A stretch of 64,000 bases of DNA from a virus, in the IMG/VR virus record IMGVR_UViG_3300043446_002688, one strand, 5' to 3'. Under the pieces are notes generated by a model. The model had not been told where the DNA came from and did no database searches. It saw nothing but the letters and a program-made list of their open reading frames with translations. The translations under genes were made by a program, and so were the position numbers. Positions 61,082-61,889 of the stretch are shown in pieces. Every line of letters begins with the position of its first letter. The first letter of the stretch is position 1.

Positions 61082-61169
61082 TGTTGTTTCAAAACAACAG
61101 TGTAGTTGCCAGATTCTTTGATTCTGTTACAATACACATCTTGTTCTTTAAAAATTTGTAGAGTTAATA
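61082..61169 (+). promoter_or_regulatory. Operator-promoter-boxA module, copy 1
   Basis: TGTTG-N8-CAACA, 6 bp, TTGCCA-16-TACAAT, then TGTTCTTTAAAAA. Confidence 0.7.
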
Positions 61170-61174
61170 ATTGT

Positions 61175-61248
61175 TCCTCCATGGTGTAGTGATAGCACAA
61201 CAGGCTTTGAACTTGTTAGTCTTGGTTTGATTCCAAGTGGGGGTGCCA
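61175..61248 (+). tRNA. trnQ: tRNA-Gln(TTG)
   Basis: Cloverleaf; ACAGG-CTTTGAA-CTTGT; T-loop TTTGATT; CCA. Confidence 0.8.
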
Positions 61249-61330
61249 TATAAAAACACATTATCTAACCTGAAGTGCGGTCACAGGACATCATAAGGTG
61301 TGGTAGCCGTGTTAGTGTGTTTCTATATGG
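61246..61330 (+). ncRNA. Stalk-enclosed structured spacer RNA A
   Basis: Closing helix CCATATA.AAACACA / TGTGTTT.TATATGG plus CTAAC/GTTAG. Confidence 0.5.
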
Positions 61331-61420
61331 AAAGTAATGCAGCTGGGATGGTCCGGCGACTAGCCTTGAAAACTAGGTTCTCAGAAATGGGATGGGGTTC
61401 GACTCCTCTGCTTTCCGCCA
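61329..61420 (+). tRNA. trnS: tRNA-Ser(TGA)
   Basis: Long variable arm, G73, CCA. Confidence 0.88.
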
Positions 61421-61421
61421 A

Positions 61422-61520
61422 TTGCGTTAGACTGGGAATTTGGCTTTCAACAAGTTTGATAGGAAACTAGCAAAACTATCAAAGTTGGCATCCTTCCGAG
61501 CTAGTTAATCAGTCTAACAA
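61422..61520 (+). ncRNA. Structured pseudoknotted spacer RNA B
   Basis: GTTAGACTG/CAGTCTAAC closing stem; TTTGATAG/CTATCAAA hairpin whose loop AACTAGC pairs with GCTAGTT. Confidence 0.55.
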
Positions 61521-61529
61521 AATATTTAT

Positions 61530-61618
61530 GGAGATTGGGCAGGATGGTAATGCAGCAGATTGCTAATCTGTCGTTGTAGTGATACGGCGAGTGGGTTCGA
61601 CTCCCACAGTCTCCACCA
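61530..61618 (+). tRNA. trnS: tRNA-Ser(GCT)
   Basis: GCAGA-TTGCTAA-TCTGT; long variable arm; CCA. Confidence 0.88.
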
Positions 61619-61621
61619 AAT

Positions 61622-61713
61622 GCCAGCGAGACTTGGTAGTCAGAGAGGTCTTATACACCTTTTAGCGCCAGATTAGCGTTCTTGAGTGAGTTTGATTCTC
61701 ACCGCTGGTACCA
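61622..61713 (+). tRNA. Atypical tRNA-like RNA with TAT anticodon, long variable arm and minimal D-arm
   Basis: GCCAGCG/CGCTGGT acceptor; GAGGT-CTTATAC-ACCTT; GTGAG-TTTGATT-CTCAC; A73-CCA. Confidence 0.7.
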
Positions 61714-61719
61714 AACAAT

Positions 61720-61796
61720 GTAGGTGTGTAGCCGAACGGTTAGGCCGTGGATTGCAAATCCATTTTATGCAGGTTCGATTCCTGTCACCTACTCCA
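61720..61796 (+). tRNA. trnC: tRNA-Cys(GCA)
   Basis: GTGGA-TTGCAAA-TCCAT; U73; CCA. Confidence 0.88.
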
Positions 61797-61801
61797 AGTT
61801 G

Positions 61802-61889
61802 TGTTGTAATTTTACAACATGATGGTTGACAAAAGATGTGGTTGTGATACAATACACATCTTGTTCTTTAAAAATTTGTAGAGTTAATA
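61802..61889 (+). promoter_or_regulatory. Operator-promoter-boxA module, copy 2
   Basis: TGTTG-N8-CAACA, 6 bp, TTGACA-16-TACAAT; the last 42 bp are identical to copy 1. Confidence 0.75.

Follow-up and report, generated by a model that had tools for sequence, protein, structure and literature searches.

We analysed a 64-kb stretch of viral DNA (IMG/VR record IMGVR_UViG_3300043446_002688, hereafter the window), near the right end of which a 42-bp sequence, TACAATACACATCTTGTTCTTTAAAAATTTGTAGAGTTAATA, occurs in two exact copies on the plus strand, 720 bp apart. The copies open two units, A and B, of an array of tRNAs and small structured RNAs that extends past position 64000. The window also encodes a terminase, a sheath, a portal, a major head protein, a gp46-like nuclease and a dCMP deaminase. 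The gp46-like protein is approximately 50% identical to its counterparts in Methylophilales phage Melnitz, Stenotrophomonas phage DLP_6 and cyanomyoviruses. No close DNA relative was found among GenBank phages using megablast, and the distant blastn hits were tRNA-level matches only. DNA of the window is present in many freshwater metagenome runs from several studies. Judged from these data, its source is an uncultured freshwater T4-like myovirus. We focus here on the resemblance of the 42-bp repeat and its surroundings to the leaders of bacterial rRNA (rrn) operons, in particular to their boxA element and to the helix that the leader forms with the trailer. The features of the locus are as follows.

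61047-61079, plus strand: hairpin and T-run that terminate the upstream leader-peptide unit (sequence, hairpin listing)
61082-61099, plus strand: AT-rich hairpin, TGTTGTTT-CA-AAACAACA, just 5' of the -35 of promoter A (sequence; the TGTTGT...ACAACA hairpin is kept in relatives)
61106-61133, plus strand: promoter A, TTGCCA (61106-61111), 16 bp, TGt-TACAAT (10/12 hexamer matches, TG present; kept in relatives)
61128-61169, plus strand: 42-bp repeat, copy 1 (exact repeat search)
61143-61153, plus strand: boxA copy 1, GTTCTTTAAAA, within the 13-mer TGTTCTTTAAAAA at 61142-61154 (consensus match, relatives)
61154-61169, plus strand: copy 1 of the strand, ATTTGTAGAGTTAATA, predicted to form the 5' side of the leader-trailer helix (homology with G001, a close relative, and nine further ones)
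61175-61248, plus strand: tRNA-Gln(UUG), first gene of unit A (tRNA prediction)
61802-61819, plus strand: hairpin, TGTTGTAA-TT-TTACAACA, 5' of promoter B (sequence, relatives)
61826-61853, plus strand: promoter B, TTGACA (61826-61831), 16 bp, TGa-TACAAT (11/12 hexamer matches, TG present)
61848-61889, plus strand: 42-bp repeat, copy 2 (exact repeat search)
61863-61873, plus strand: boxA copy 2, GTTCTTTAAAA, with the 13-mer TGTTCTTTAAAAA at 61862-61874 (consensus match, relatives)
61874-61889, plus strand: predicted leader strand of the leader-trailer helix, copy 2 (relatives; co-variation of the unit-A and unit-B tails within genomes)
61891-61965, plus strand: tRNA-Glu(UUC), first gene of unit B (tRNA prediction)

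Sequence identity between the two copies ends exactly at the 42-bp borders, and none of 100 dinucleotide-preserving shuffles of the window contained a match to the 42-mer, even with up to three mismatches allowed. Each copy opens with the TACAAT -10 hexamer of a TTGNCA-16 bp-TGnTACAAT promoter; 9 nt that span the likely start site come next, followed by boxA and the helix strand. It ends 5 nt before tRNA-Gln (start 61175) or 1 nt before tRNA-Glu (start 61891). An initial annotation of this DNA had described two identical units 720 bp apart, each beginning at the -10 of a promoter with a 16-bp spacer and followed by a tRNA, and our analyses confirm this description. It had also called the 42 bp a promoter-boxA unit, which holds for the boxA part; the last 16 nt are a strand of the leader-trailer helix, which it had not seen. 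As for the likeness to rrn P1 promoters that it proposed, it is weak: the discriminator is AT-rich, and spacers of 16-17 bp with a TGn are ordinary among the promoters of this phage. We also considered the repeat as a MotA box of a middle promoter. With only 1-5 nt between the unit and the tRNA, transcription from such a promoter would start within the tRNA, and we rejected this reading.

An rrn-type boxA beside tRNA genes

The boxA of the repeat, GTTCTTTAAAA, lies on the transcribed strand and agrees at every position with GYTCTTTAANA, the functional consensus given in the literature (PMC5725501). When a single genome for each prokaryote species was scanned with the 17-mer TGTTCTTTAAAAATTTG, at least 122 exact matches were returned. 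Half of the 122 matches listed sit within rrn operons. Among them, 46 lie between the 3' end of the 16S and the 5' end of the 23S rRNA gene, in taxa that include Pseudomonas, Polynucleobacter, Nitrosomonadaceae, Pasteurellaceae and Shewanella. Fifteen others of the listed matches are in 16S leaders with a boxC-like GTGTGGGY at most 40 nt downstream, and 11 of these 15 carry the full 19-mer CTTGTTCTTTAAAAATTTG in common with the phage. Where record titles were shown, the leaders bearing the 19-mer belong to Burkholderiaceae or Alcaligenaceae. The spacer boxA of Pseudomonas is identical over 17 nt, the phage RNA counterpart being GUUCUUUAAAAAUUUG. In the rrn operons of Polynucleobacter (L197, L206, L287), the leader has the boxA variant CCCTCTTTAAAAATTAG, yet the phage-type TGTTCTTTAAAAATTTG is found in the 16S-23S spacer. 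The motif is thus an rrn-type boxA by sequence, as first annotated: compared letter by letter, the phage carries the boxA that bacteria use in their rrn operons, with 17-19 nt of identity to leader or spacer elements. This identity hints at a Burkholderiales-like host.

A motif this short also occurs by chance. The count of the bare 13-mer in the window is not above expectation, as 14 of 100 shuffles had at least three, and its significance must therefore be sought in position, length and conservation rather than in the motif count. The third consensus boxA of the window, TGTTCTTTAACAA at 47544-47556, lies within an open reading frame (ORF, 47342-48406) and is probably a chance match. G001 has a GTTCTTTAACA distant from its tRNA array.

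Conservation was assessed in relatives gathered without using the boxA motif, with the 5' part of tRNA-Glu and the ORF upstream of the array as anchors. Their loci total 1.56 Mb and contain 118 distinct consensus boxA matches, 82 of which are at most 60 nt upstream of a tRNA gene on the same strand, a zone that represents approximately 4% of positions. The distance from boxA to the tRNA peaks at 14-22 nt, and nearly all of these tRNA-proximal matches (77/82) precede tRNA-Gln or tRNA-Glu. When the count was restricted to tRNA genes preceded by a spacer of 35 nt or more, an exact boxA was present before 35 of 70 tRNA-Glu and 35 of 54 tRNA-Gln genes but before only 5 of 698 other tRNA genes, and the reversed control gave 0. 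The initial annotation had made its proposal depend on conservation in relatives, and the members of a large phage family have indeed kept boxA ahead of their tRNA-Gln and tRNA-Glu genes. The GTTCTTT part is near-invariant, and what variation there is (GCTCTTT or GTTCTTT, AAAA or AACA) is as in real boxA elements, of which GCTCTTTAAAA and GTTCTTTAACA in the relatives are variants. In DLP_6 and Melnitz, which are cultured but distant relatives, no tRNA gene adjoins a consensus boxA.

The distance between boxA and the promoter is variable. In the window, the G of boxA is 10 nt after the -10 and is predicted, from its position only, at approximately +1 to +4 of the transcript. It is 7-9 nt after the -10 in many unit-A copies of the relatives, and in most of their unit-B copies a hairpin intervenes and boxA is approximately 30 nt from the start. 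Six lineages (L023, L139, L171, L145, L154 and L123) have no promoter at all in unit A, where boxA comes directly after the T-run of the upstream terminator, and in L126 boxA is directly behind another tRNA. Because the promoter distance varies and boxA persists without any promoter, these comparisons indicate that boxA acts as RNA and is not a promoter part. In the same six lineages the upstream unit is a leader-peptide unit, and transcription has to pass through its terminator to enter the tRNA array.

Many relatives show the order promoter, hairpin, boxA, in which the hairpin consists of TTGA-GAAA-TCAA with 1-3 outer pairs. It is 94% paired and has compensatory changes in three pairs; 500 shuffles gave no covariation score as high. 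Even among diverged relatives, the loop and the upper four pairs, TTGAGAAATCAA, do not vary, a hint that they are recognized in a sequence-specific manner. The bacterial rrn leaders that we examined likewise have a hairpin and then boxA, so that, at the level of sequence, the arrangement in the relatives is the boxB-boxA order of rrn. No GAAA hairpin or boxB before boxA was found anywhere in the window, where both units keep boxA alone.

boxA elements next to phage tRNAs also occur elsewhere. Three other phage contigs (L322, L302 and L369) have the E. coli-type TGCTCTTTAACAATTT 6-13 nt 5' of a tRNA gene (Ser, His and Glu). L322 (IMGVR_UViG_3300043444_000502), an unrelated large phage contig of 167.6 kb, has at 9480-9570 a promoter, then a GATC-GAAA-GATC hairpin, then an E. 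coli-type boxA, then the tRNA. Many more E. coli-type 16-mers are present in phage intergenic regions without tRNAs, and these may be nut-like sites.

A predicted helix between leader and trailer

The 16 nt that follow boxA, ATTTGTAGAGTTAATA, have no evident partner within the window: neither a reverse-complement copy of the motif nor a duplex above shuffled controls was found in 61249-64000. The close relative G001, which is 89-100% identical in the aligned pieces, has an array with 27 tRNAs, and there ATTTGTAGAGTTAATA pairs perfectly with TATTAACTCTACAAAT, located approximately 9 nt after tRNA-Thr(UGU) and 4.0-4.7 kb downstream. With the longer leader, the G001 duplexes have energies of -31.5 and -34.2 kcal/mol, the minima of shuffled leaders being -21 to -27. 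Ten independent relatives, G001 among them, have a best downstream complement with z values of -4.6 to -8.1, and their trailers lie 2.3-6.4 kb downstream, mostly 2-37 nt past the 3' end of a tRNA. Compensatory changes are found at no fewer than nine helix positions among relatives. Some tails are entirely different, each with its own complement, such as ATTGATGGTCAAT in L122, GTTTGATGCAGT in G009 and ATTTATAGAGTTAT in G005. Covariation thus indicates that the leader-trailer helix exists in the relatives. For the genome of the window itself, we infer by homology with G001 that the trailer is located past position 64000.

The helix is 16-22 bp long in the relatives. Its first pairs involve the A-run of boxA (positions 8-11) and its last ones lie at approximately position 27, which is where the 42-bp identity stops; the helix strand therefore explains why the whole 42 bp stays identical. 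The GTTCTTT of boxA is unpaired in nearly all helices, and the non-Watson-Crick pairs are U-G on the sense strand.

Two further pairings were considered and not retained. A second helix segment in G001, between the -10 region and GTGTGTGTTGTA after the trailer, was rejected as it is not kept in other relatives. A second complement, ATATTGAACTCTACAAAT, found in G001 and L137, is unsupported and lies inside an ORF for an 844-aa product. This sequence is at 10387-10403 in G001 and at 8174-8200 in L137, approximately 3 kb past the last tRNA, and in L137 it matches the unit-B tail better than does the first trailer. As for the surroundings of the trailer, in G001 (L408, reverse strand, approximately 13002-6016 to 13002-5988) a third hairpin-promoter unit, TTGACA-17-TACAAT, comes directly after it and starts the rest of the array without a boxA. 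The -35 of the next promoter (TTGACT) shares bases with the trailer in G004, G002 and L137.

The tails of units A and B evolve in concert. They are identical at 12.9 of 14 positions within a genome as against 9.8 of 14 between genomes, a difference reached by none of 5000 permutations. Such co-variation would be expected if both tails had to pair with a single trailer. In most relatives the leader of unit B is longer and has a hairpin, whereas in the clade of the window unit B has a leader of the unit-A type, including the bases between the -10 and boxA. Gene conversion from unit A to unit B thus appears to have occurred in this clade. The two units of the window would then be identical both because each needs boxA and the same single trailer and because B has been overwritten by A.

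A proposed leader of the rRNA operon type for a tRNA array

In rrn operons, the leader has the layout boxB-boxA-boxC. Of these elements, boxA is both required and enough for the complex, and the E. coli rrn operons can do without boxB (PMC10250234). The antitermination complex comprises NusB, S10, NusA, NusG, SuhB and S4 (PMC10250234, PMC4807359, PMC5725501). In the E. coli rrn operons, the strand directly after boxA holds boxC and is the leader strand of the leader-trailer helix; according to the tethering model, NusB-bound boxA retains it at the exit channel of the RNA up to the emergence of the trailer (PMC10250234). We propose that the 42-bp repeats each open a transcription unit with this architecture, in which Nus loading is combined with a leader-trailer helix, and we give this reading a probability of about 0.6. 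The sigma70 promoter would start the RNA at boxA or 1-4 nt before it. Given the identity with rrn boxA and the published rrn biology, host NusB-S10 would bind the boxA RNA and, together with NusA, NusG and SuhB, turn the RNA polymerase into a fast, termination-resistant complex of the rrn type. The 16 nt following boxA would stay tethered close to the exit of the RNA until, 4-5 kb further on and just past a tRNA, the trailer is transcribed and pairs with them into a helix of 16-22 bp. By analogy with pre-rRNA, this helix is probably an RNase III site or a clamp for folding and processing. A helix of 16-22 bp is near the minimal length of an RNase III substrate.

The similarities with rrn operons include the boxA, identical over 17-19 nt, the hairpin-then-boxA order in the phage relatives, and a cargo of stable RNA. 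Furthermore, the 5' strand of the helix comes right after boxA and its 3' strand right after the last structured RNA gene. In contrast, the phage cargo is an array of tRNAs and noncoding RNAs with a few small ORFs and not rRNA, the carrier is a lytic phage, and the phage helix is shorter (16-22 bp rather than 25-40 bp). No strong intrinsic terminator was found inside the leader-trailer bracket.

Several observations weigh against this reading. No boxC-like GTGTGGG (UCUGUGUGGG-like) follows boxA in the window; the sequence at this place is ATTTGTAGAGTTAATA, which, like boxC, occupies the leader strand of the helix. The boxA of the window is at the extreme 5' end of the predicted RNA, whereas rrn leaders have it approximately 30-60 nt in, and two leader copies compete for one trailer. 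There are further promoters inside the bracket. The consensus is not enriched genome-wide, as relatives of 107-176 kb hold 0-4 matches, no more than the reversed control, and the boxA signal is therefore positional. Metagenome scans gave 0 matches to the continuation of the window past 64000, so that the helix is here deduced from a relative. Contigs from RNA libraries (Logan) cover the array but show no transcript ends; in these contigs, the depth in the array is highest over structured RNAs other than tRNAs (62012-62118, 63082-63188 and 61370-61476). Finally, the array has more G than C, and C-rich, G-poor windows amount to 1 of 279. The initial annotation had envisaged a long, untranslated and Rho-sensitive transcript. 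Rho sensitivity is not evident from this composition, and the bracketed unit contains small ORFs, so that it is not wholly untranslated. Faster elongation and delivery of the helix may matter more than countering Rho.

Three other explanations were weighed. The unit might serve processing or folding only, as a leader for the helix or as a site for another RNA-binding factor or RNase, with a boxA likeness that is convergent or stems from captured host rrn DNA and involves no Nus loading. The helix is the best-supported feature of the locus and overlaps the A-run of boxA, and Rho targets look scarce in the array, which would both fit this idea. Nevertheless, we consider it unlikely. The GTTCTTT part is near-invariant despite being unpaired in nearly all helices, and it varies as real boxA does. 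In addition, identity to rrn boxA over 17-19 nt exceeds what a helix requires, and units with completely dissimilar tails (L122, G009) still have boxA.

According to a second explanation, boxA would be part of a nut-like site and work only with a phage factor bound to the GAAA hairpin, in analogy to lambda N. The invariance of TTGAGAAATCAA in diverged relatives, with the specific recognition that it suggests, speaks for such a factor, as does the GAAA hairpin before the E. coli-type boxA and tRNA of the unrelated L322. Like lambdoid nut sites, the element is a phage boxA RNA predicted to recruit host Nus factors, and the relatives have a GAAA-type hairpin. However, this hairpin is absent from the window, in which boxA stands alone in both units. 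Where the hairpin does occur, it precedes boxA, which is the rrn order and not the boxA-boxB order that lambda uses with N. Moreover, the element leads tRNA genes of a T4-like lytic phage, and its boxA is of the full rrn form; that of lambda is the weak CGCTCTTA. In rrn, boxA alone suffices (PMC10250234). No N protein is known for this phage, no search aimed at an N-like gene having been made. The independence from an N- or Q-like phage protein that the initial annotation had proposed is only a possibility, given the invariant GAAA hairpin of the relatives. We hold this second explanation to be quite improbable.

The third explanation, a DNA-level feature, namely a promoter-proximal operator or a promoter cassette under gene conversion with the complement as a DNA inverted repeat, draws on the overlap of boxA with the start site in the window (a typical operator position), on the concerted evolution of units A and B, on the overlap of the trailer with a -35 in some relatives and on the hairpin-promoter cassettes known to recombine in T4-type phages (PMC2839356, PMC4122927), but we deem it very improbable, since boxA keeps its position beside the tRNA rather than the promoter and survives without one, since the helix mismatches are U-G on the sense strand where the other strand would have A-C, and since the identity to a host RNA signal would be left unexplained. 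The cassettes in question, PeSLs, are defined as stem-loops directly before an early sigma70 promoter that are repeated in the genome (PMC2839356, PMC4122927). The hairpins at 61082-61099 and 61802-61819 precede the two promoters, are repeated and belong to units that evolve in concert, and they fall within this definition. It accounts only for the part upstream of the -10, however; the exact repeat starts at the -10 and is mostly transcribed leader, and the PeSL definition includes neither boxA nor a helix strand.

Returning to the rrn-type leader, it is tempting to speculate that the phage runs its tRNA array through the rRNA production line of the host, with a Nus-carried leader strand, a bracket cut by RNase III and maybe Nus factors drawn away from host rrn operons. 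We regard this wider scenario as possible rather than probable.

We found no report of boxA at phage tRNA arrays in the literature; one apparent match turned out to be the BOXA1R PCR primer and not boxA. To our knowledge, ribosome biogenesis is regarded as the sole task of rrn antitermination and of leader-trailer helices, and we know of phage boxA use only from temperate lambdoid phages with protein N. The tRNA cluster of T4, with its stable RNAs (species 1 and 2), resembles the T4-like array described here in that tRNAs are interspersed with small stable RNAs, but we are aware of no boxA or leader-trailer helix described in T4. The rrn leader itself is known; what would be new is the copying of its logic by a lytic phage for a tRNA array. 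A family of abundant lake T4-like phages keeps boxA and the predicted leader-trailer helix before its tRNA arrays. If the proposed reading is true, the rrn machinery is a general module for long stable-RNA transcripts that viruses have copied. The tethering and chaperone model of rrn would then be open to study in the phage units, a compact natural setting that has a single helix, a single boxA and tRNAs as read-outs. The boxA sequence may also hint at the host group of uncultured phages.

Other structured RNAs are present in the array. The RNAs that follow tRNA-Gln (61249-61330) and tRNA-Glu (61966-62178) are closed by a similar stalk, CCATAT...ATATGG. In addition, 61329-61416 and 61622-61709 gave sub-threshold Rfam matches resembling tRNA-Sec (32 and 30 bits, respectively). 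The former is not called by ARAGORN, and the latter is called as an odd tRNA-Ile(UAU) with a long variable arm.

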